Of a DNA stretch of 34,578 nt, positions 2,736 to 27,548 are shown one piece after another (position 1 is the first letter of the stretch; the number at the start of each line of letters is the position of its first letter). The notes below the pieces were generated by a model. That model did not search any database and was not told the origin of the DNA. It saw only the letters and a program-made list of their open reading frames with translations. Made by a program: the position numbers and the translations under genes. Origin of the DNA: a virus; UHGV virus genome UHGV-0107442; one strand, given 5' to 3'.

Positions 2736-2764
2736 TTGACAGATTCCAAAAGCGATCTTAAAGT
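2736..2764 (+). promoter_or_regulatory. Candidate rightward lytic promoter (pR-like) in the cI-apl switch region
   Basis: TTGACA (2736..2741), 17-bp spacer, TAAAGT (2759..2764), reading toward apl (ATG 2854). The lysogenic promoter and CI operators should lie in 2709..2853 but were not resolved. Confidence 0.4.
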
Positions 2765-4461: not shown

Positions 4462-4695
4462 ATGCGTAATATTGATACCCTCACGACTAAAACCGGACCG
4501 GATGACGCAGGGCTTAATATTTTACTGACAGAGGCTCGTCTGGAAGAACGCCGGGCAAGGGCTGAAGCAATGGCAGCTCGCCTTGATCGCCTGGCGTGTC
4601 ATATCACATCCCGCCAGTTAAACCACGTCGAAGCGGCAGAACTGCTGCGTGTGACTGCTGAAGCAATCCAGAACGAAGCGCAGGAGATCCACTGA
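4462..4695 (+). CDS. Hypothetical early protein (77 aa), predicted helical
   Basis: ORF 4456..4695 begins with TTG; ATG at 4462 follows CAGGAG at 8-nt spacing. Its stop overlaps the next start (ATGA). Confidence 0.6.
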   Translation: MRNIDTLTTKTGPDDAGLNILLTEARLEERRARAEAMAARLDRLACHITSRQLNHVEAAELLRVTAEAIQNEAQEIH

Positions 4696-4922
4696 TGGCT
4701 GATGCAATGGATCTCGTCCAGCAGCGCGTTGAAGAAGAACGCCAACGTCATATCCGTGCTGCCCGTGCCAAAACGCCGGGCGTGTCCCGCGTGCTTTGCG
4801 TTGAGTGTGAAGCGCCAATTCCGCCAGCACGCCGTCGTGCCATTCCGGGTGTGCAGCTTTGCATTACCTGTCAGGAAATCGCAGAGCTGAAAGGCAAACA
4901 TTACAACGGAGGTGCTGTATGA
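4695..4922 (+). CDS. TraR/DksA-family C4 zinc-finger protein
   Basis: 75 aa with CVECE...(17 aa)...CITC, the two CxxC pairs typical of phage/plasmid TraR-like proteins. Translationally coupled to neighbours (ATGA overlaps at both ends). Confidence 0.7.
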   Translation: MADAMDLVQQRVEEERQRHIRAARAKTPGVSRVLCVECEAPIPPARRRAIPGVQLCITCQEIAELKGKHYNGGAV

Positions 4923-5776
4923 GCACCATCCTGAAATGGGCGGGAAATAAAACCGCCATAATGTCCGAACTGAAAAAGCATCTTCCTGCTGGCCCGCGAC
5001 TGGTTGAACCTTTCGCGGGTTCCTGTGCAGTGATGATGGAGACGGATTACCCCAGCTATCTTGTTGCGGATATTAATCCTGATTTAATCAACCTCTATAA
5101 AAAGGTTGCTGCTGATTGTGAGGCGTTTATATCTCGTGCCAGAGCTTTATTTGAGGAAGCAAACAGGGAGGTGGCTTATTACAACATAAGGCAGGAGTTT
5201 AATTACTCCACTGAAATTACTGATTTCATGAAAGCGGTATATTTTCTGTATCTCAATCGTCATGGTTACCGTGGGTTATGTCGCTATAACAAGAGCGGGT
5301 ATTTCAACATTCCCTACGGTAATTATAAAAATCCGTATTTCCCTGAAAAAGAAATTCGCGCATTTGCAGAGAAAGCCCAGCGGGCAACGTTTATCTGCGC
5401 CAGCTTTGATGAAACGCTGGCGATGTTGAAGGCGGGGGATGTGGTGTATTGCGATCCGCCGTATGACGGTACGTTTTCCGGCTATCACACTGATGGTTTC
5501 ACTGAAGATGACCAGTATCACCTGGCATCCGTTCTTGAACATCGGTCATCAGAAGGACATCCGGTCATTGTTTCTAACAGTGACACATCCCTGATCCGTT
5601 CGCTGTATCGCAATTTTACTCACCACTACATCAAGGCAAAACGCAGCATCGGTGTGGCAGCTGGTGATAGTAAATCTGCAACAGAAATCATTGCTGTTTC
5701 CGGGGCGCGCTGCTGGGTGGGATTTGATCCTTCGCGTGGCGTAGATAGTTCTGCTGTGTACGAGGTGCGTGTATGA
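4919..5776 (+). CDS. Dam-type DNA adenine methyltransferase (GATC-class N6-MTase), orphan
   Basis: ORF 4859..5776 begins with TTG; ATG at 4919 follows GGAGG at 8-nt spacing. Has the DPPY catalytic motif (VYCDPPY) and an N-terminal AdoMet region (ILKWAGNK...EPFAGSCAV). No adjacent restriction endonuclease gene. Confidence 0.85.
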
Positions 5777-8166
5777 GTCATGACGATATGAGCAACTCTA
5801 GCGGCTTTAACGAGGCCGCTGCATCATTTTCATGGAACGGCCCGAAAAAGGCCATTAACCCTTATCTGGACCCGGCGGAATTTGCGCCGGAGTCTGCACT
5901 TTCAAACCTGATCACTCTGTATGCTGCCGATAACGAGCAGGAACAACTGCGCCGCGAGGCACTGAGTGAGCAGGTCTGGGAGCGTTATTTCTTTAATGAA
6001 TCCCGTGATCCTGTCCAGCGCGAAATGGAGCAGGATAAGCTCATTAGCCGGGCAAAGCTGGCGCATGAGCAGCAGCGTTTTAATCCAGACATGGTCATTC
6101 TGGCTGACGTCAACGCCCAGCCTTCCCATATCAGCAAGCCGCTGATGCAACGTATTGAATACTTCAGCAGTCTGGGCAGGCCAAAGGCTTATTCCCGCTA
6201 TTTGCGTGAGACGATTAAGCCATGTCTGGAAAGACTGGAGCATGTACGCGACAGTCAGCTATCCACTTCTTTTCGCTTTATGGCAAGCCATGAAGGGCTG
6301 GACGGCCTGCTGATCCTGCCTGAAATGAGTCAGGATCAGGTAAAACGCCTGTCCACCCTGGTAGCAGCGCATATGAGCATGTGTCTTGAGGTCGCTTGTG
6401 GTGATTTGTATGCCACCGATGACGTTAAGCCAGAAGAAATCCGCAAGACATGGGAAAAGGTGGCGGCGGAAACCCTGCGACTGGATGTCATACCGCCTGC
6501 GTTTGAGCAACTCCGCAGGAAAAGAAACCGCCGTAAACCCGTGCCCTATGAACTTATTCCGGGTTCGCTGGCGCGTATGTTGTGCGCCGACTGGTGGTAT
6601 CGGAAATTATGGAAGATGCGTAGCGAATGGCGGGAAGAGCAGTTGCGTGCTGTTTGCCTGGTCAGCAAAAAAGCATCTCCCTATGTCAGCTATGAAGCCG
6701 TGATGCATAAACGTGAGCAGCGCCGTAAGTCGCTGGAGTTTTTCCGTTCTCATGAACTGGTGAACGAAGACGGCGACACGCTGGATATGGAAGACGTGGT
6801 AAACGCCAGCAGCAGCAACCCTGCGCATCGCCGCAATGAGATGATGGCCTGTGTTAAAGGTCTGGAGCTTATCGCGGAAATGCGCGGTGACTGCGCCGTT
6901 TTCTACACCATCACCTGTCCGTCACGTTTCCATTCCACGCTAAATAACGGCAGGCCAAACCCGACCTGGACCAACGCGACAGTAAGACAAAGCAGCGATT
7001 ATCTGGTCGGCATGTTTGCTGCATTTCGTAAGGCTATGCACAAAGCCGGGTTGCGCTGGTATGGCGTGCGGGTGGCTGAGCCGCATCATGACGGCACAGT
7101 TCACTGGCACCTGTTGTGTTTCATGCGCAAAAAAGACCGCCGCGCCATTACTGCATTGTTGCGTAAGTTTGCCATCCGTGAAGACCGCGAGGAGCTGGGC
7201 AATAACACGGGGCCACGCTTTAAGTCTGAGCTGATAAACCCGCGCAAAGGAACGCCGACAAGCTACATTGCGAAATATATCAGTAAGAATATTGACGGGC
7301 GTGGTCTGGCTGGCGAGATCAGTAAGGAAACGGGTAAATCCCTGCGTGATAACGCTGAATACGTTAATGCCTGGGCGTCTCTGCATCGTGTTCAGCAATT
7401 CCGCTTCTTTGGCATTCCGGGGCGTCAGGCTTACCGTGAACTGCGATTGCTGGCTGGTCAGGCGGCAAGGCAACAGGGGGACAAAAAAGCAGGTGCGCCG
7501 GTACTGGATAACCCGCGCCTTGATGCAATCCTGGCTGCTGCTGATGCTGGTTGTTTTGCCACTTACATCATGAAGCAGGGCGGCGTACTGGTTCCCCGCA
7601 AATATCACCTCATCAGAACTGCTTATGAAATTAACGAAGAGCCGACCGCCTATGGCGATCACGGCATTCGTATTTATGGCATCTGGTCACCCATTGCAGA
7701 GGGCAAGATCTGCACTCATGCAGTGAAGTGGAAAATGGTTCGTAAAGCCGTTGACGTTCAGGAGGCGGTAGCCGACCAGGGCGCTTGCGCCCCTTGGACT
7801 CGTGGCAATAACTGTCCCCCTGTTGAAAATATGAACAAATCAGGGGGGGATTTACCCGATATTAAAACCATGGATGAGAAGGAGCTGCAGGAATATCTCC
7901 ACAACATGGGCCAGAAGGAACGGCGGGAGCTGACAGCCAGGTTGAGACTGGTAAAACCGAAGCGAAAAAAAGCATACATACAGAGTATTTCGGAGCAGCA
8001 GCGCCTGCAGCTTGAGGCAGAACTGACTGCCAGAGGGTTTGAGGGTAGTGTATCTGAGATTGATTTGCTTCTGCGTGGCGGCAGCATTCCATCCGGTGCC
8101 GGTTTACGTATTTTTTACCGTAAACAGAGGCTGCAGGAAGATGACAAATGGCGTCGATGGTACTAA
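5773..8166 (+). CDS. A: Rolling-circle replication initiation protein (P2 gpA family)
   Basis: 797 aa; size and position match P2 A (761 aa). Contains the region [13 protein letters not shown] (HUH-like) and downstream YIAKYISK with candidate catalytic tyrosines. Start overlaps the Dam stop. Confidence 0.9.
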
Positions 8167-8525: not shown

Positions 8526-8747
8526 ATGCGCATTGAAATAATGATCGATAAAGAGCAGAAGATTAGCCAGGCCACACTGGAAGCCCTTGAATCCGAGCTC
8601 TACCGTAATTTGCGCCCTCTGTATCCCAAAACAGCAATTCGTATCCGTAAGGGCAGCGCCAATGGTGTTGAACTGAGCGGGTTAAAACTGGATGAAGACA
8701 AAAAGCGAGTAATGGAAATAATGCAGCAGGTTACATTAAAACGTTGA
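8526..8747 (+). CDS. DinI-family protein
   Basis: 73 aa; the MRIEIMI start and overall pattern resemble E. coli DinI (MRIEVTI...). SD AGGGAA upstream; downstream of the LexA box. Confidence 0.8.
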   Translation: MRIEIMIDKEQKISQATLEALESELYRNLRPLYPKTAIRIRKGSANGVELSGLKLDEDKKRVMEIMQQVTLKR

Positions 8748-8937: not shown

Positions 8938-8982
8938 CTAGCTAATCCTGAATGTGGGTTAGTGGAAATTACAAGGAAATAT

Positions 8983-10164
8983 ATGAAACTGACTGAGCTA
9001 ACTATAAACGGTATCGGGGGGATAAAGTCCCTGTACGTAAAATTTAGGCCTGACATGAATATTATATGTGGGCCTAACGGAGTTGGAAAATCCACACTCT
9101 TGCTTGCTGCCTCCTTTCCTTTTCTTCATGGATACACTAATAGAATAAAACGCAATGTCACTTCTGAAACAGGAAGTGTTAGTCTAATAATAGAAGATAA
9201 TTCTGTTAACTTTAATTCAGTATTAGATGTTAACGTTCATTTGCCTACAGAAACAATTCACAACTTTAATAATAACGGATTTGATAAGAGGAAACTAATA
9301 AAATTTGAAATATTACGTAACTTTGATTATAAACATCTTGAGGCGTTGAATGCAGATAAATCACTATCCGATGATGCTGTTTCGCAACAGATTAATTTAG
9401 GTGTCAATTTACATGATATCAAGGATTGGTTTGCTAAGAGGGATTTGTTTGAAAAAGTAGATAATGGTTACGGTCCTAATACGATAAAAAATATACATCT
9501 TGCAAGGGAGTGTATATCAATTTTAAACCCTCAGTTTTCTTACAATCGCGTCGATCCTAAATCTTACGATATTTTTGTAAATACCCCGACCGGGGTAATA
9601 TGGTATGAATATCTGTCCTCGGGATTCAAATCATGTATGAGTCTCCTTCTCGGTATTATTAAAGAGATCGAGCTTCGTTATCCGGAGAAAGATATTTACG
9701 CCCAAGAATTTGATGGAGTGATTCTTATCGATGAAATTGAGCTTCATTTGCATCCTGAGTGGCAGGCAAGAATCACTGAAGCCCTTACGACAACATTTCC
9801 ATCAGCACAATTTATTGTCACAACTCACAGCCCACATGTAGTACAGAATGCAAAACCACATCAGATCATTGCGTTAGTACCAGATAATGATGGCACAGTG
9901 AGAGTAAAAGAACTTCCTGAAAATGGCTTGGGTTATTCTGCCTGGACAGTTGAAGAGGTTTTGTTAGATGTAATGGGGATGGAAAGCACTCTCAGTAGAA
10001 AACTACAAGAACTACTTGATAATTTCGAACGTTTTGTTGATGAAGAAAATTTCGACAAGGCGAAAGAAATTTATGATTATTTGGATATGGCATTGCATCA
10101 AAACAGTATTCTTCGTAAATCTCTTAAAATAAGCCTGATGTCAATTCGAGAGAGAGAAGAGTAA
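8983..10164 (+). CDS. ABC/SMC-like P-loop ATPase, Septu PtuA-like
   Basis: ORF 8962..10164 begins with GTG; ATG at 8983 follows AGGAA. Walker A GPNGVGKST, Walker B VILIDEIELHLHP, then TTHSP. 393 aa; the stop abuts the start of the HNH gene. About 33% GC versus about 52% in the phage backbone. Confidence 0.8.
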   Translation: MKLTELTINGIGGIKSLYVKFRPDMNIICGPNGVGKSTLLLAASFPFLHGYTNRIKRNVTSETGSVSLIIEDNSVNFNSVLDVNVHLPTETIHNFNNNGFDKRKLIKFEILRNFDYKHLEALNADKSLSDDAVSQQINLGVNLHDIKDWFAKRDLFEKVDNGYGPNTIKNIHLARECISILNPQFSYNRVDPKSYDIFVNTPTGVIWYEYLSSGFKSCMSLLLGIIKEIELRYPEKDIYAQEFDGVILIDEIELHLHPEWQARITEALTTTFPSAQFIVTTHSPHVVQNAKPHQIIALVPDNDGTVRVKELPENGLGYSAWTVEEVLLDVMGMESTLSRKLQELLDNFERFVDEENFDKAKEIYDYLDMALHQNSILRKSLKISLMSIREREE

Positions 10165-10165
10165 A

Positions 10166-10912
10166 ATGATTAAGCTTGAACGGAACTTTATTCCTGATTT
10201 TTTTACTCGTGTTGATCTTCTATCTTTAACTCAGGAGTTTAAAGATAATGGAACATCTGTTTGGCATCATCCGGAAGTAAAATCGGCATGTCTAAAATTA
10301 AGTAATGGCAAATGTGCATTTTGTGAGGTCAAGCTTGAAGAGGCTAGCACCTATAATGAAATTGAGCATTTTAAGGATAAAAAAAATTTCCCTGATGATG
10401 TTATTAGATGGGAAAATCTCCTTCCTTCATGCCGTCACTGTAATGGTTCAAAACAACGCCATAATGTTGTACTCAATCCTATAATAAATCCATGCAACGA
10501 TTTACCGTCAGAACACCTTTATATGATAGGGTATCGTATTAAAGGTAAAACTGATTTAGGTAAAACAACAGTGGATGTTTTAAACTTTAATCACAGGGAG
10601 CACAAGTTTATACCGCGTTGTAAAGCAGGGGAACTTATAGATAGCAGTATTGATGACGCAATAGAAAAACTTAATTGGTTTAATGAGAATCCAAGTACTA
10701 GACGTAAAAACATTCTTATGAATCTAGTCGAGGCAATATTAGGTGAGTGTCAGAAAACATCTCCCTTTTCTGCAGTATCAGCAACAATGCTTCATCGTTC
10801 AGTCGAATATTCTTATCTGAAAGAAACCATGCAGATGCAAGGATTATGGTCAGATTATATGCAGGAACTTCATGATGAATCTTTGAGCCTGACGTTACCG
10901 TCAATTCGCTAG
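10166..10912 (+). CDS. HNH endonuclease, Septu PtuB-like
   Basis: 248 aa with CAFCE...EIEHFKDKKNFPDDVIRWENLLPSCRHCNGSK (CxxC...H...N...CxxC HNH core). ATG 10166 is 1 nt after the ATPase stop. Confidence 0.8.
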   Translation: MIKLERNFIPDFFTRVDLLSLTQEFKDNGTSVWHHPEVKSACLKLSNGKCAFCEVKLEEASTYNEIEHFKDKKNFPDDVIRWENLLPSCRHCNGSKQRHNVVLNPIINPCNDLPSEHLYMIGYRIKGKTDLGKTTVDVLNFNHREHKFIPRCKAGELIDSSIDDAIEKLNWFNENPSTRRKNILMNLVEAILGECQKTSPFSAVSATMLHRSVEYSYLKETMQMQGLWSDYMQELHDESLSLTLPSIR

Positions 10913-11284: not shown

Positions 11285-11378
11285 AACTCATAAATCCTAG
11301 ATTATTAGTGGATTTATCTCATTGAAATGTGCACTATTCCCAGCATTGAGTTGTACCAGATGTCTTTATGGAGGGACT

Positions 11379-13145
11379 GTGGCTTTTGTAACTGATATTC
11401 GGCTTGAAGATAATGCTATTGCTGCACCTGCGACAGCACAGGTTATGGCTCAGAGGCTAGGATCTGTATTACGTAAGAGATATGAAGAATTCATCCATAA
11501 AAGAGAGTGTGCACCAGGCCAAGCAGACTATGATGTAAAAATGGCTAGCAGGGCTTTAGCTGCATTCACTATGTATCAGTTAGGATGTGTGGATGATAAG
11601 TATGCAGGGGAGTCTGTATGTGATAGTAGTGAAGATGGTGGTATAGATGGAATAGCAATCAACCATAACGAAAAAATCGTTGTTGTTGTTCAATCAAAAT
11701 TTCACCAATCGGGAAACGGCACTTGGACAAGAGCCGATTTTATGTGTTTTAAGGATGCTTGTGAGAAGCTACAAAGTGAAAGATACGAATTATTTGATTC
11801 CATATTGCAAAATAAAAGCGGGGAAATAAGTGCGGCTTTAAGTAGTTTTGAATACAAGTTCATCTTTGCGATGGCGCATACAGGTAAAAAAGGTGCTGCA
11901 GAGGAAATATTAAATGATATGCGGGAATGGCAATATCAATTAAACGCTGCAGCTTTTACACCTGAGGATGAGCCTAAAGAGAACTGGGGATTTCAGGTTC
12001 ATTTAATATCCTCTGAAGATATGATGCATTGGTTACAGAATGGCTCTCGAAATCAAATTGATCTTAACAGGGTTGAAATTGAGCGTTTTGGATTTTTGAA
12101 TGAACCATATCAAGCTTTTTACGGGGCTATTAGTGGTGATCAAGTTGCAGAATGGTGGGAAGAGCATGGTGCTCGATTATTTACAAAAAACATAAGGAAT
12201 ATGCTTGGTAAAACAGAAGTGAATGAGGAAATAAAAAAGACAGCTATAGATAATCCTGATATGTTTTGGTTTTATAATAATGGGATTACTGTACTGGTTA
12301 AGGAGGTTGTTCCTCATAGACGAAACGCAGCTCCTAATATAGAGAGAGGGATTTTTGATTTTCGTGATGTAAGTGTCATTAATGGTGCACAAACAGTCAG
12401 TAGTATTGGCGCATGTAAAGATGCGCTTGGTGAAAACATATATAGACTCAAAGTGCCAGCCAGATTCATTGTTATAGATGATGATACTGATAATTTAACT
12501 GCAAATGCGATTACAAAAGCTAACAATTTCCAAAATAGAGTATTGGGAAGAGATTTTGCGTCGCAGCAGGCAGATCAACATAGATTGGCAAGGGAGTTAG
12601 TGCTTGAAGGATATCAATATCAGTTACTAAGAACAGATGAAGATCATTCACAGACAAATACGAAAGTCATTGACTTGGATGAGGCGCTCAATGCACTCGC
12701 ATGTTTAAGTAAAAATAATACGGTTGTATCGACACTAAAATCAAATCGCGGTAGGTTTTTTGAAAATTTTGAAGGCTCTCTATATAAAACTATTTTCAAT
12801 CCAAGATTAAGTGGTTTAAAACTTATCAATACTGTTCTACATTTTAGAGTTATAGATAAGTTGATCGGTAAAACATTACTATCAGTAGATAAAACTACCC
12901 ATAGTCGCAAGCATTTAATTATTACGCATGGTAATAGATACTATGCGTCTGTGCTATTGAGCAACGTTTCTGGGATACATAATAGCTCAGAAATTCTTGT
13001 TCCAGATGAAAAAAATCTTTCAGAAGAATTAAGTGCATTAATTCAACGTGCTGAAGAGTACATTGAAGATAATTACCCGAATGCCTATCCGGCAAGATTT
13101 TTTGCAAATCCAACGAAAATACAAGAGTTATACGATAATGTTTAA
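11379..13145 (+). CDS. AIPR-family (abortive-infection phage-resistance) protein with an N-terminal PD-(D/E)xK-like nuclease motif
   Basis: ORF 11322..13145 begins with TTG. Start uncertain: GTG 11379 (GGAGGG 3 nt upstream) or ATG 11445. N-terminal DSSEDGGIDGIAI...VVVVQSKF resembles Mrr/restriction-endonuclease-like D...QxK. Central WFYNNGITVLV...VINGAQT matches the AIPR hallmark as remembered. AT-rich. Confidence 0.7.
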   Translation: MAFVTDIRLEDNAIAAPATAQVMAQRLGSVLRKRYEEFIHKRECAPGQADYDVKMASRALAAFTMYQLGCVDDKYAGESVCDSSEDGGIDGIAINHNEKIVVVVQSKFHQSGNGTWTRADFMCFKDACEKLQSERYELFDSILQNKSGEISAALSSFEYKFIFAMAHTGKKGAAEEILNDMREWQYQLNAAAFTPEDEPKENWGFQVHLISSEDMMHWLQNGSRNQIDLNRVEIERFGFLNEPYQAFYGAISGDQVAEWWEEHGARLFTKNIRNMLGKTEVNEEIKKTAIDNPDMFWFYNNGITVLVKEVVPHRRNAAPNIERGIFDFRDVSVINGAQTVSSIGACKDALGENIYRLKVPARFIVIDDDTDNLTANAITKANNFQNRVLGRDFASQQADQHRLARELVLEGYQYQLLRTDEDHSQTNTKVIDLDEALNALACLSKNNTVVSTLKSNRGRFFENFEGSLYKTIFNPRLSGLKLINTVLHFRVIDKLIGKTLLSVDKTTHSRKHLIITHGNRYYASVLLSNVSGIHNSSEILVPDEKNLSEELSALIQRAEEYIEDNYPNAYPARFFANPTKIQELYDNV

Positions 13146-23815: not shown

Positions 23816-24413
23816 TCTGCTGCCACCGGGTTCAACACCACTGGAGCGCCGACTGGCGCAAACCTGCAGCGGGATTTCTGATCTGCAGGTGCCGCTTCGT
23901 GACTTGTGGAATCCGGCAACCTGTCCGGTCAGTTTCCTGCCTTATCTCGCCTGGGCGTTCTCTGTGGATCGCTGGGACGAGGGCTGGACAGAAAGCGTCA
24001 AGCGCCAGGTGGTGAAGGATGCTTTTTATATTCATCAGCATAAAGGGACCACCAGTGCCGTGCGGCGGGTGGTGGAGCCGTTCGGATTCCTGATCCGCAT
24101 TATTGAGTGGTGGCAGACCGGAGAAACACCGGGCACGTTTCGCCTGGATATCGGCGTGCAGGACCAGGGCATCACTGAAGATACCTATCTGGAACTTGAG
24201 CGACTGATAAGCGATGCCAAACCATGTAGCCGCCACATGATCGGCATGTCCATCAATCTGCAGACCAGCGGCCCGCATTGGGTGGGAGCCGCCAGCTATC
24301 TTGGCGAAGAAATCACGATCTATCCGTATATCAACGAAACGATTATTTCCGGTGGCACCGCGCATGAAGGCGGGGCGGTCCATGTTATTGACACAATGAG
24401 AGTGAATCCATGA
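23808..24413 (+). CDS. I: Baseplate / tail protein (P2 gpI family)
   Basis: 201 aa; overlaps both neighbours. Confidence 0.85.
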   Translation: MNSLLPPGSTPLERRLAQTCSGISDLQVPLRDLWNPATCPVSFLPYLAWAFSVDRWDEGWTESVKRQVVKDAFYIHQHKGTTSAVRRVVEPFGFLIRIIEWWQTGETPGTFRLDIGVQDQGITEDTYLELERLISDAKPCSRHMIGMSINLQTSGPHWVGAASYLGEEITIYPYINETIISGGTAHEGGAVHVIDTMRVNP

Positions 24414-25801
24414 GCACAAAATTTTATACCCTGCTGACGGATATTGGCGCGGCGAAACTTGCCAGCGCCGCCGCGCTCGGTGTGCCGCTAAAAATTACCC
24501 ATATGGCGGTGGGCGATGGCGGTGGAGTATTGCCAACGCCGGACGCAAAGCAGACGGCACTGGTAAATGAGAAACGCCGGGCTGCGCTGAATATGCTTTA
24601 TATCGACCCGCAGAACAGCAGCCAGATTATTGCCGAACAGGTGATCCCTGAAAACGAGGGCGGTTGGTGGATACGTGAAGTGGGCTTGTTTGATGAGTCC
24701 GGGGCATTGATTGCCGTGGGCAACTGCCCGGAAAGCTATAAGCCGCAACTGGCTGAAGGTAGCGGGCGCACTCAGACCGTGCGCATGGTGCTGATTACCA
24801 GCAGCACGGACAATATCACCCTGAAAATCGACCCTGCTGTAGTGCTGGCAACCCGCAAGTATGTGGATGACAAGGCACTGGAGCTGAAGGTGTACGCGGA
24901 TGATCAGATGGCAAAACATCTTGCCGCACCGGACCCGCATTCACAGTACGCGCCAAAAGCCAGCCCGACATTTACCGGAACCCCCAAAGCGCCAACGCCA
25001 GCGGCGGGGAATAATACCACGCAGGTTGCGACCACTGCGTTTGTACAGGCGGCACTGACGGCCCTTATTAATGGTGCGCCAGCCACGCTGGACACGCTGA
25101 AAGAAATAGCCGCAGCCATTAACAATGATCCGAATTTCAGTACCACCATTAACAATGCGCTGGCACTAAAAGCACCGTTGTCGAGTCCGGCACTCACCGG
25201 AACGCCAACAGCCCCCACGGCGGCGCAGTCGATCAACAATACACAGATTGCCACTACGGCTTTTGTGAAATCGGCGATTGCAGGAATGGTGGGTTCTGCA
25301 CCTGCTGCACTGGATACACTGAACGAACTGGCGGCGGCACTGGGGAATGATCCGAACTTTGCCACGACAATGCTTAATGCGCTGGCAGGTAAACAACCGC
25401 TGGACAATACGCTTACCAATTTGAGTGGAAAGGATGTAGCTGGTCTTCTCACATACCTTGGTTTGGGAGAAGCCAGATATGTCATTCAGCGAGGAGCTAA
25501 TGTCAATGGTGCATGGATACGCTGGTCAGATGGTGCAATAGAAGTATTTGGAACTGGTGGTTCCAATGATAATGGGCTGGCTAAAGTCGTTTATCCAATT
25601 GCACTACCTAAGCTTTCACGTTTTATCAGCATAGCGGAAAGAATAAGAACAGATTACGAGGCCACACCTAATAACGTTCACGTTTCAATGATCGTGGATG
25701 ACCAGGTCAGTAATACAGGTTTTTATGTCCGCTGCCAGATGTACGACGGAAGACCATCAACAAGTGCTTTTTCCTGGAGAGTTTATTGTGCGCCTGTTTA
25801 A
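24410..25801 (+). CDS. H: Tail fibre protein (P2 gpH-like constant N-terminal region plus variable C-terminus in the current orientation)
   Basis: 463 aa. Two tandem copies of a roughly 70-aa repeat (...TGTPKAPTPAAGNNTTQVATTAFVQAAL...DTLKEIAAAINNDPNF... and ...TGTPTAPTAAQSINNTQIATTAFVKSAI...DTLNELAAALGNDPNF...). The inversion crossover site lies inside the gene at 25458..25478 (encodes GLGEAR). Confidence 0.85.
   Translation: MSTKFYTLLTDIGAAKLASAAALGVPLKITHMAVGDGGGVLPTPDAKQTALVNEKRRAALNMLYIDPQNSSQIIAEQVIPENEGGWWIREVGLFDESGALIAVGNCPESYKPQLAEGSGRTQTVRMVLITSSTDNITLKIDPAVVLATRKYVDDKALELKVYADDQMAKHLAAPDPHSQYAPKASPTFTGTPKAPTPAAGNNTTQVATTAFVQAALTALINGAPATLDTLKEIAAAINNDPNFSTTINNALALKAPLSSPALTGTPTAPTAAQSINNTQIATTAFVKSAIAGMVGSAPAALDTLNELAAALGNDPNFATTMLNALAGKQPLDNTLTNLSGKDVAGLLTYLGLGEARYVIQRGANVNGAWIRWSDGAIEVFGTGGSNDNGLAKVVYPIALPKLSRFISIAERIRTDYEATPNNVHVSMIVDDQVSNTGFYVRCQMYDGRPSTSAFSWRVYCAPV
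25458..25478 (+). repeat. Left inversion crossover site, inside H
   Basis: Identical to the reverse complement of 26894..26914. Confidence 0.7.
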
Positions 25802-25985
25802 TCCTGTTACTTTGACTGAAGTAATCCCCGGTCTTCATGACGTGACCGGGGCTGTGGAATTACCAGAAGATAACTGGTTTTTTACTGCATCTGAAATCCC
25901 TGAAGGAATGGAAATATCTGTTAACGAGAAGGGCGAACCCATTCTGATTGAGATTAAACCATATCAGGTGGAACTGGCCAGATAA
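25788..25985 (+). CDS. Small ORF after the active fibre C-terminus; putative tail-fibre assembly/chaperone protein (65 aa)
   Basis: GTG 25788 follows GGAGA at 7-nt spacing and overlaps the H stop. Function assigned by position (equivalent to U of Mu-type invertible segments); no motif recognised. Confidence 0.4.
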   Translation: MRLFNPVTLTEVIPGLHDVTGAVELPEDNWFFTASEIPEGMEISVNEKGEPILIEIKPYQVELAR

Positions 25986-26220
25986 CCCCCGGCGCGGTGC
26001 TGGTATCTGCTTCCATCACCGCGTCGATATTACCAACATCATATTCAGTCATTTCCGGTTCCGGTGGTGCTATAAACTCTCCGTCAGAATAGAACCAACC
26101 GACGCCTGCATCTATATGATCAATATTTATAATTTCGCAGTTAGAGAATAAATCACCCTCTCCATCCCAGATAATAATATTTTTCACCACGCCATGTTCA
26201 ATCAGAGCAAAATTACTCAT
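25954..26220 (-). CDS. Small ORF of the alternative cassette; putative tail-fibre assembly/chaperone protein (88 aa)
   Basis: ATG at 26220 (-) overlaps the stop of the alternative fibre C-terminus (ATGA). Convergent with the ORF at 25788..25985, as expected for an invertible segment. Confidence 0.5.
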   Translation of the reverse strand: MSNFALIEHGVVKNIIIWDGEGDLFSNCEIINIDHIDAGVGWFYSDGEFIAPPEPEMTEYDVGNIDAVMEADTSTAPGVIWPVPPDMV

Positions 26221-26954
26221 CAGGCATACTCCTCAACAATAACTATTCCCGGGGCACCGTCACCTCCCGATTGAGCCTCACTTCCAGCAGGTGCGCAGGC
26301 TCCGCCTCCGCCAGAACCAAAGCCCTCAGCTTTACCACCACCACGTCCGCTGAATGATGAAGAACTTGCACCACCTATACCGCCTGAACCTAATGGTGTA
26401 TCCCCCCCGTTACCCCCTGCTACAGCTTTAACAGAGATAACCATTGCTCCTGGTGTTTTTGCACTACAGCGAAATGCTCTTAGTACAGTACCGGACGATG
26501 TCGGACTGGCACCCCGTGAAATACCCTGAATATATGATGTGTTTGCAGATGCTCCCCCCGCGCCACCGCCTGTACCACCAGGTGCAGTTATCATGGAACC
26601 GAAATAAGTTGTGCCACCTTCACTACCTGAATTTCTTCCGGCTCCCCCCCCTTTACCTGCAGCACCGATAATAACGTTGACTTCGAAATCATTATCAACC
26701 TCGAAAAATGCTTCAATAAATGCGCCGCTCAATCCAGCTCCGGCTGTTGCCTGCTGATTTTCTGTTGTTTCAGGAACCCCACCGCCGCCGCCACCGCCAC
26801 CAGAGGCAATGACCCTTATCTTTTTTGTCCCTGGTGTTGGGATATATTTTCCAGAGCTTTTAAAAATATTCGTGTTTAACAAACGACCAGAGAATCTGGC
26901 TTCTCCCAAACCAACGTTTAAGAAAATGCAGAGGTAACAGCTAACTGGCATCAT
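26220..26954 (-). CDS. Alternative, glycine-rich tail-fibre C-terminal cassette (silent in this orientation)
   Basis: The minus-strand ORF encodes VGLGEARF at the crossover site (26894..26914), in frame with the same GLGEAR encoded in H. Inversion would fuse about 230 aa of Gly-rich sequence (runs such as GGGGGGGG, GGTGGGAGG) to the H constant part. The first 14 codons before the crossover are probably not part of any real protein. Confidence 0.65.
   Translation of the reverse strand: MMPVSCYLCIFLNVGLGEARFSGRLLNTNIFKSSGKYIPTPGTKKIRVIASGGGGGGGGVPETTENQQATAGAGLSGAFIEAFFEVDNDFEVNVIIGAAGKGGGAGRNSGSEGGTTYFGSMITAPGGTGGGAGGASANTSYIQGISRGASPTSSGTVLRAFRCSAKTPGAMVISVKAVAGGNGGDTPLGSGGIGGASSSSFSGRGGGKAEGFGSGGGGACAPAGSEAQSGGDGAPGIVIVEEYA
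26901..26926. repeat. Right inversion crossover site (gix/hix/cix-like)
   Basis: TTCTCCCAAACC-AA-CGTTTAAGAAAA: two 12-bp half-sites around a 2-bp core, resembling remembered hix/gix sites (for example TTCTTGAAAACC-AA-GGTTTTTGATAA). Confidence 0.6.
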
Positions 26955-26981
26955 CTCCGGTTTTTATTCAGGGGGATGATC

Positions 26982-27548
26982 ATGCTTATTGGCTATGTAC
27001 GCGTGTCAACAAATGACCAGAACACCGATTTGCAACGTAATGCACTGAATTGCGCGGGATGTGAGCAGATTTTTGAGGACAAAATCAGTGGCACTAAGTC
27101 CGACAGACCGGGGCTGAAAAAACTACTCAGGACACTATCGGCAGGAGACACGCTGGTTGTCTGGAAGCTGGACAGGTTGGGGCGCAGTATGCGGCATCTT
27201 GTTACGCTGATAGAAGAGTTGCGCCAGCGTGGTGTGAATTTCGGAAGCCTGACTGACAGTATTGATACCAGTACCCCAATGGGCCGTTTCTTTTTTCATG
27301 TCATGGGTGCCCTGGCTGAAATGGAACGCGAACTGATAGTTGAACGTACCAGGGCAGGGCTGGCTGCAGCTCGTGCCAAAGGCAGAGTAGGTGGACGCCG
27401 TCCTAAGTTGACCACCGAACAGTGGGCACAGATTGGGCGTTTACTCGAGGCCGGAGAATCAAGACAGCGTATTGCACTGATTTTTGATGTAGGCGTTTCT
27501 ACCATTTATAGAAAATTTCCGGCAAATAAGATCAATGAATCCCCCTGA
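26982..27548 (+). CDS. Serine recombinase, DNA invertase (Hin/Gin/Cin/Pin family)
   Basis: MLIGYVRVSTNDQNTDLQ... with the catalytic-serine motif (VRVSTNDQ) and a C-terminal HTH. ATG 26982 follows AGGGGG; an alternative ATG at 26976 is in frame. Confidence 0.85.
   Translation: MLIGYVRVSTNDQNTDLQRNALNCAGCEQIFEDKISGTKSDRPGLKKLLRTLSAGDTLVVWKLDRLGRSMRHLVTLIEELRQRGVNFGSLTDSIDTSTPMGRFFFHVMGALAEMERELIVERTRAGLAAARAKGRVGGRRPKLTTEQWAQIGRLLEAGESRQRIALIFDVGVSTIYRKFPANKINESP

Follow-up and report, generated by a model that had tools for sequence, protein, structure and literature searches.

The virus genome UHGV-0107442, a stretch of 34,578 nt referred to here at its full length as the window, is an almost complete prophage of Escherichia coli of the Fels-2/186-like type (Felsduovirus, Peduoviridae), and it carries a dam-like gene directly upstream of its replication initiator gene, gpA. 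The product is very probably an active orphan methyltransferase of the Dam family, most likely acting at GATC, encoded in the early lytic operon and translationally coupled on both sides. This conclusion draws on sequence comparison and on the analogy with phage 186. The gene is an uninterrupted open reading frame (ORF) of 285 codons on the plus strand, running from an ATG at 4919 to a TGA at 5774–5776. An earlier note on this DNA had read 4919–5776 as a phage-borne Dam-like N6-adenine methylase with a DPPY motif. The coordinates and the motif (residues 179–182) are exact, and the family profiles match far beyond chance. The gene was correctly identified there, yet it is already known and annotated.

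The gene and its immediate neighbors are as follows.

4919–5776 (+), stop codon included: dam-like gene, 285-amino-acid Dam-family (D12, alpha-class) N6-adenine DNA methyltransferase
4908–4914 (+): GGAGGTG, strong Shine–Dalgarno sequence of dam, 4 nt before the ATG and within the end of the TraR-like gene, read from the sequence
4695–4922 (+): TraR/DksA C4 zinc-finger gene, upstream of dam (PF01258, 4.4e-11; phrog_54, 1.8e-30)
5773–8166 (+): gpA, rolling-circle replication initiator of the P2/186 type, downstream of dam (PF05840, 3e-127; phrog_91, 1e-286)

Enzyme family and predicted fold

By sequence profile and by modeled structure, the protein belongs to the Dam family (D12, alpha-class) of N6-adenine DNA methyltransferases. 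The PF02086 profile (D12-class N6-adenine methyltransferase) was covered in full by residues 7–244 (5e-77; 259.5 bits against a cut-off of 22). The best NCBIfam model was that of the Dam subfamily, TIGR00571, which scored 322.4 bits against a cut-off of 114.85. Since the chromosomal Dam equivalog NF008152 scored 289.2 bits, below its cut-off of 441, the phage enzyme is, on this profile evidence, a paralogue-like member of the family and not an orthologue of the host Dam.

Among proteins of solved structure, the nearest by sequence were chains of E. coli Dam (EcoDam; 1.4e-73), followed more weakly by DpnM (1.7e-33) and T4 Dam. Global alignment with EcoDam gave 47% identity over 269 aligned residues. 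An AlphaFold2 (AF2) model built from a 32-homologue alignment, with a predicted local distance difference test score (pLDDT) of 76 overall and >85 in the core, was closest to the EcoDam structures 4RTJ and 2G1P (template-modeling score, TM, 0.88), then to DpnM (TM 0.77) and T4 Dam. The alignment with EcoDam is collinear and places the AdoMet (S-adenosylmethionine) region, the target-recognition hairpin and the catalytic region in the alpha-class order.

Catalytic, cofactor and DNA-reading residues

The conserved elements of the enzyme map to the gene as follows.

5453–5464 (+): catalytic motif IV, D179-P-P-Y182, invariant in 37/37 clade members
5012–5026 (+): motif I (AdoMet binding), F32-A-G34-S-C36, counterpart of EcoDam F35-V-G37-A-G39 in pairwise and multiple alignments
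5258–5329 (+): target-recognition hairpin region, residues 114–137 (Y117, R118, L120, R122, P132, N135, Y136), mapped onto EcoDam Y119, N120, L122, R124, P134, R137 and Y138
5699–5773 (+): clade-specific C-terminal tail, residues 261–285, absent from EcoDam in the alignments

The AdoMet site is recognizable from motif I together with the acidic D51 (EcoDam D54), and F32, G34 and D51 vary little or not at all among 36 relatives. The third glycine of motif I is replaced by cysteine (C36) in the whole phage clade; T4 Dam also lacks this glycine. The DPPY codons themselves contain a GATC site (GAT CCG).

The reading of GATC by EcoDam, which is specific for this site, has been assigned to individual residues: K9 and Y138 serve the first base pair, L122 and P134 the third and R124 the fourth, Y119 intercalates, and N120 is a DNA-contact residue (PMC4417163). 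The phage enzyme has K6 (the first, N-terminal contact, encoded at 4934–4936), Y117, L120, R122, P132 and Y136 at the positions of EcoDam K9, Y119, L122, R124, P134 and Y138, and all are invariant or nearly so in the 36 relatives, which are 55–97% identical. The EcoDam-type set of GATC-reading residues is present save N120, whose place is taken by R118. From these residues we strongly infer that the phage enzyme is specific for GATC.

Within the C-terminal tail, W266, G268, D270 and D276 are nearly invariant across the clade. Residues 264–285 have a pLDDT below 50 in the model from the 32-sequence alignment, and the model cannot place the tail. The last codons of dam (E-V-R-V) double as the gpA ribosome-binding site and the ATGA junction, a shared use that accounts for their conservation. 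A likeness of the tail to the first strand of RuvC/terminase RNase-H-like domains was a mere impression, and it was set aside as unsupported.

Junctions and position in the early operon

The longest ORF called mechanically over dam begins at a TTG at 4859. We take the ATG at 4919 to be the real start, because GGAGGTG stands 4 nt before it and homologues are annotated at the identical length of 858 bp. This ATG (4919–4921) overlaps the TGA of the TraR-like gene (4920–4922) in an ATGA junction. At the other end, the ATG of gpA (5773–5775) overlaps the dam stop codon (5774–5776) and is preceded by GAGGTG at 5762–5767. Almost all of the 36 relatives, from >20 Enterobacterales species, have ATGA or GTGA junctions at both ends of dam. 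That dam is coupled to a TraR-like gene before it and to the replication initiator after it, as the earlier note had stated, is borne out by the start/stop overlaps at both ends and by their retention in relatives.

The first 690 bp of the window are 100% identical to E. coli rcdA (TetR-family), and the integrase gene begins at 691; the host is therefore E. coli and the prophage is inserted beside rcdA. At the right, the window stops within gene D or shortly past it and includes neither ogr nor a right attachment site. From left to right the genes are integrase, a 186-type CI repressor, the candidate promoter pR, an apl-like ORF, cII, DUF5347, DUF2732, TraR, Dam, gpA and DinI, followed by a hotspot of defense genes and then by portal, terminase, head, lysis and tail genes. 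The order from CI to gpA agrees with the annotated map of phage 186, and dam occupies the accessory slot of a 186/Fels-2-type early operon, at the place of 186 orf84. Synteny with the 186 map thus upholds the placement of dam in the early operon.

The regulatory features that bear on its expression are these.

2139–2795 (−): 186-type CI repressor (PF07022, 3e-31, and PF16452, 3e-29), with its true start probably near 2708
2736–2764 (+): candidate early lytic promoter pR, TTGACA-17-TAAAGT, 10/12 matches in the promoter scan
5799–5821 (+): GC-rich hairpin with a U-tract, 27–49 nt inside gpA, from the terminator scan

The candidate pR stands ~90 nt upstream of the apl-like ORF, slightly beyond the probable CI start, which is the layout seen in 186. 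In phage 186 the early lytic operon is transcribed from pR under repression by CI, translation of A appears to need translation to the end of orf84, and just inside A lies a terminator, tM1, that takes effect if A is left untranslated (phage 186 record). The hairpin at 5799–5821 (−13 to −20 kcal/mol) is kept in relatives that use different codons there (SGFNEAA, GGSNEAA, GGASDAA), while its fold energy is indistinguishable from that of shuffled sequences (z = −0.65). On the evidence of its conservation across different codons, it is a possible counterpart of tM1. The 186 record, the location of dam at the place of orf84 and the conserved hairpin inside gpA together support true translational coupling and expression of dam in the lytic phase.

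By homology with 186, dam probably belongs to a CI-repressed pR operon and would be silent in the lysogen. The promoter scan found no promoter of dam's own above background. An antisense promoter-like site inside dam (5349–5322, −) was dismissed as being at chance level, with 6 sites found against 7.9 expected, and no non-coding RNA was matched when the window was scanned in full with Rfam.

This regulatory setting bears on whether dam might instead be a lysogenic-conversion gene, expressed from the prophage and epigenetically reprogramming host gene expression. A Dam-like methylase of a Staphylococcus aureus prophage, PamA, does act in this way, and over-produced Dam can methylate normally under-methylated sites (bioRxiv 10.1101/2020.06.22.160242). 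However, the location of dam within the CI-repressed early lytic operon, the lack of a promoter of its own above background and a host that already methylates GATC make such a role very unlikely. The earlier note had suggested that the enzyme protects phage DNA or alters host methylation. Protection is retained in the role proposed below, but alteration of host methylation is unlikely for a lysogen, in which pR would be repressed by CI and the E. coli Dam already modifies GATC. For the same reasons, the comparison of a lysogen with a cured strain, proposed to reveal the target motif, would probably be uninformative.

Orphan status and the neighboring defense hotspot

Among the ORFs of the window, no restriction endonuclease was found with Pfam or PADLOC. 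The nuclease scan covered the hotspot ORFs between gpA and the portal gene together with the remaining uncertain ORFs, and it found only PtuA/PtuB, an AIPR/AbiU-like protein, DinI, lysozyme, a tail-fiber invertase and structural genes. Type II restriction-modification systems of the DpnII/MboI type have an adjacent cognate endonuclease gene; here, dam is flanked by TraR and gpA in 38/38 close genomic loci (>20 Enterobacterales species). The best PADLOC match of the methylase was an orphan-methyltransferase model (PDLC03729, 1.5e-111). With the flanking genes and the endonuclease search, this agrees with the description of the enzyme as a methylase without a partner endonuclease.

The hotspot between gpA/DinI and the portal gene is AT-rich (GC ~36% against 47–53%) and contains two sets of defense genes.

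8962–10912: Septu pair, PtuA (PDLC00305, 1.2e-151) and PtuB, an HNH protein (PDLC00342, 1.6e-95)
11322–13145: AIPR/AbiU-like gene (PF10592, 7e-35)

PtuB, at 10166–10912, is the only nuclease in the window. Its presence and that of the AIPR/AbiU-like protein, 4.4–7.4 kb downstream of dam, raise the question of whether the methylase is one half of a restriction-modification or defense system whose nuclease, perhaps the HNH protein, is encoded at another place in the prophage. We regard this as extremely unlikely. PtuB pairs with PtuA as a complete Septu system, and to our knowledge Septu is not methylation-dependent. The cassette sits in a separate AT-rich hotspot whose content varies among relatives that keep the same Dam, with AIPR alone in RE2010 and a retron St85 effector in 4LV2017, whereas the immediate neighbors of Dam are TraR and gpA in every close locus. 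The restriction-modification reading was rejected on the Pfam and PADLOC scans, which gave no partner nuclease.

The slot between the TraR-like gene and gpA holds additional genes of the DNA-modification type in some relatives. These include a second DPPY methylase beside Dam (loci L008 and L021), an ORF that resembles C5-cytosine methylases and contains a PCQ motif (L015, L019), and a PAPS-reductase/PP-loop ORF similar to 186 orf84, located together with Dam (L013, L020, L021). An ASCH/DUF3850-like small ORF (L003, L006, L015) and a DnaQ-like exonuclease (L006, L029) also occur there.

Distribution and relation to known methylases

Of 5,426 complete E. coli genomes, 1,239 have the dam gene at the same location with ≥90% nucleotide identity, as do dozens of phage records. 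Among the E. coli records listed, it carries the annotation 'DNA adenine methylase' and lies between a TraR/DksA regulator gene and one for a replication endonuclease. Its nucleotide sequence is 95–97% identical in Salmonella phage RE-2010 and in numerous phages of Klebsiella and E. coli, and several E. coli chromosomes match it at 100%. At the protein level, the closest 90%-identity cluster comprises 4,038 sequences, there are 6,668 protein matches at E ≤1e-20, and relatives occur in 1,122 phage records. Few accessory genes of Enterobacterales prophages are as common, and the presence of dam matters little as it stands.

The same 858-bp gene occupies the same TraR/DksA–gpA slot in RE-2010 (gp10), Klebsiella phages 4LV2017 and ST437-OXA245phi4.2, and prophage 2 of Klebsiella pneumoniae Kp52145, for which the same trio of 228-, 858- and 2415-bp genes has been tabulated (PMC7826664). 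Such Fels-2-type relatives show essentially no difference inside dam and differ in the immunity region and the defense cargo of the hotspot. A further likeness, known through citation, is retron-Ec67 of E. coli, a 34-kb element that is a 186-related prophage: a Dam methylase ORF was reported there in 1990, as recounted in PMC7826664. Some E. coli proteins of 456–496 residues have this Dam (94–99% identity) fused to a phage gpD (PF05954) domain, and are probably products of internal prophage deletions that joined the early and late regions. The P2-like prophage located in EC958, at 950–988 kb, is without Dam and gives no link between M.EcoMIV and this clade. A literature search on STM2730 returned nothing relevant.

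Compared with EcoDam (PDB 2G1P, 4RTJ), the phage enzyme shares the D12 alpha-class fold, the DPPY motif and the AdoMet-site and GATC-reading residues. Unlike EcoDam, it is encoded in a phage lytic operon and not at the chromosomal dam locus, and it has an extra tail of 25 residues. Phage 186 has the same slot between its DksA-like gene and A, with the last slot gene translationally coupled to A, but its orf82 to orf84 are exonuclease-like, DUF5405 and PAPS-reductase-like genes, with no methylase among them. DpnM (M1.DpnII) is likewise a D12-class methylase specific for GATC, but it has a cognate endonuclease and the phage Dam has none here. T4 Dam, ~22% identical by tblastn and of shared fold, and P1 Dmt/Dam are both phage-encoded orphan enzymes that form N6-methyladenine at GATC. 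P1 Dmt is a large two-domain protein. Because P1 packages its DNA from pac, and P2/186-like phages from cos, the packaging role of the P1 enzyme is not directly transferable. That role, at the pac site, is a defined one for P1 Dam, and T4 Dam has been described as GATC-specific (PMC12707154).

Proposed role

Many phages carry Dam homologues (PMC12707154; PMC7556043). Reviews list those of P1, the T-even phages, VT-2 and HP1, and describe their role as poorly understood apart from packaging in P1; why phages of Dam-positive hosts keep a Dam of their own is still unsettled there (PMC7556043; PMC12707154). With multicopy DNA the cell's own Dam becomes limiting, and Dams of phages have been regarded as anti-restriction functions (bioRxiv 10.1101/2020.06.22.160242). 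A role for the present enzyme can be outlined along these lines. In the lysogen, CI would repress pR and dam would be silent. Upon induction or infection, transcription from pR would yield Dam together with gpA. With host Dam limiting, the phage enzyme could keep fast-replicating phage DNA fully methylated at GATC. In the next host, packaged genomes would then be shielded from GATC-specific restriction that is sensitive to methylation, and replication intermediates would be spared a prolonged hemimethylated state recognized by MutH and SeqA, whose consequences are established E. coli biology.

Several observations weigh against an active, GATC-specific enzyme that benefits the phage. In the target-recognition hairpin region, N120 and R137 of EcoDam are replaced by R118 and N135 throughout the clade. 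Also fixed are the loss of 5 residues after DPPY and the change of G39 to C36, which gives motif I the form FAGSC. In EcoDam, R137 contacts DNA. The window holds 120 GATC sites against 115 ± 10.5 expected from dinucleotide shuffles, neither enriched nor avoided, and the Markov ratio (0.74) does not stand out from those of other palindromes. With the count at chance level, the sequence shows no trace of selection by GATC restriction. E. coli hosts have a Dam already, and any gain from a second copy is unproven. The genes that 186 has in this slot, flanked by the DksA-like gene and A, are non-essential (phage 186 record). The searchable literature yielded no experiment on this Dam clade.

The clade-invariant R118, N135, C36 and the 5-residue deletion after DPPY could also be taken as signs of a relaxed or different specificity, either GATN or nearly non-specific like that of M.EcoGII or Serratia phage OS31 p25, which would make the protein a broad anti-restriction enzyme. 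Non-specific prophage adenine methylases do exist. A methylome paper of 2015 noted that close homologues of one prophage Dam homologue, which may or may not belong to this clade, had no assigned recognition site. All of the EcoDam base-specific contacts (K9, L122, R124, P134 and Y138) and the intercalating Y119 are nevertheless conserved. The nearest solved relatives all methylate GATC, and the best NCBIfam model is that of the Dam subfamily. The position of EcoDam N120 varies in T4 Dam too, where it is Ser, which also counts against relaxed specificity. Taken together, a departure from GATC appears quite unlikely.

For the preferred reading, a GATC-specific lytic-phase enzyme, there are practical consequences. 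Studies of the E. coli, Klebsiella and Salmonella methylomes should reckon with a second GATC methylase, normally silent, on such prophages. There may also be a cost to the phage. Over-produced Dam triggers retron-Sen2 by methylating its multicopy single-stranded DNA (bioRxiv 10.1101/2020.06.22.160242), and phages with this Dam may be sensed through dam by abortive infection of the retron-Sen2 type.

A GATC in the candidate pR promoter

The candidate pR contains a GATC at 2754–2757, corresponding to positions −17 to −14. Of 100 Dam-carrying loci, 80 have a GATC at the identical offset, with widely divergent spacers and across unrelated immunity types. Such a site is found in none of 69 Dam-less 186-like loci, 11 of which have a GATC one nt closer, and the annotated pR of phage 186 is without a GATC at that offset. 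Counted by promoter type, the site is present in 5/15 Dam-plus and 0/18 Dam-less types (Fisher p = 0.013). When a GATC one nt closer is also counted, the difference falls to 6/15 against 4/18, and it loses significance once any GATC in the promoter counts.

These counts raise the idea that Dam acts on the phage's own switch, with a methylation-sensitive GATC in the pR promoter/operator and a feedback loop closed by the pR-encoded Dam. Conservation of the GATC at this offset in Dam-carrying loci and its absence there from Dam-less ones favor such a link. A precedent may come from SopE-phi, which we take to be a Fels-2-like phage. Excision of SopE-phi is favored by Dam methylation through an unknown target (PMC7380047). 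The contrast between promoter types shrinks, however, when the neighboring GATC position is included, and the comparison is confounded because loci with and without Dam come from different clades. Overlap of this GATC with inverted repeats that are probably repressor operators could account for its conservation independently of Dam, and it is missing from three Dam-plus immunity types. We therefore consider control of pR by Dam doubtful, with a small but real chance of being correct.

If it were correct, Dam would set the methylation of pR on newly replicated and packaged genomes and so tune early transcription or repressor binding. The outcome of the lysis–lysogeny decision or of induction could be tuned by the methylation state of pR, and R118, N135, the short loop after DPPY and the conserved disordered tail could serve this specialized role. 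The conserved pR GATC offers a cheap, testable hypothesis on why these phages keep their own Dam.

Other features of the prophage

Two further regions of the window were noted. A DinI-like gene (PF06183, 1e-17) at 8526–8747, just downstream of gpA, occupies the position of the tum/DinI-like SOS operon of 186. In the tail-fiber region (24410–27548), an oppositely oriented glycine-rich ORF at 26220–26954 (−) is followed by a serine invertase of the Hin/Cin type at 26976–27548 (PF00239, 1e-52), an arrangement that suggests an invertible host-range segment.

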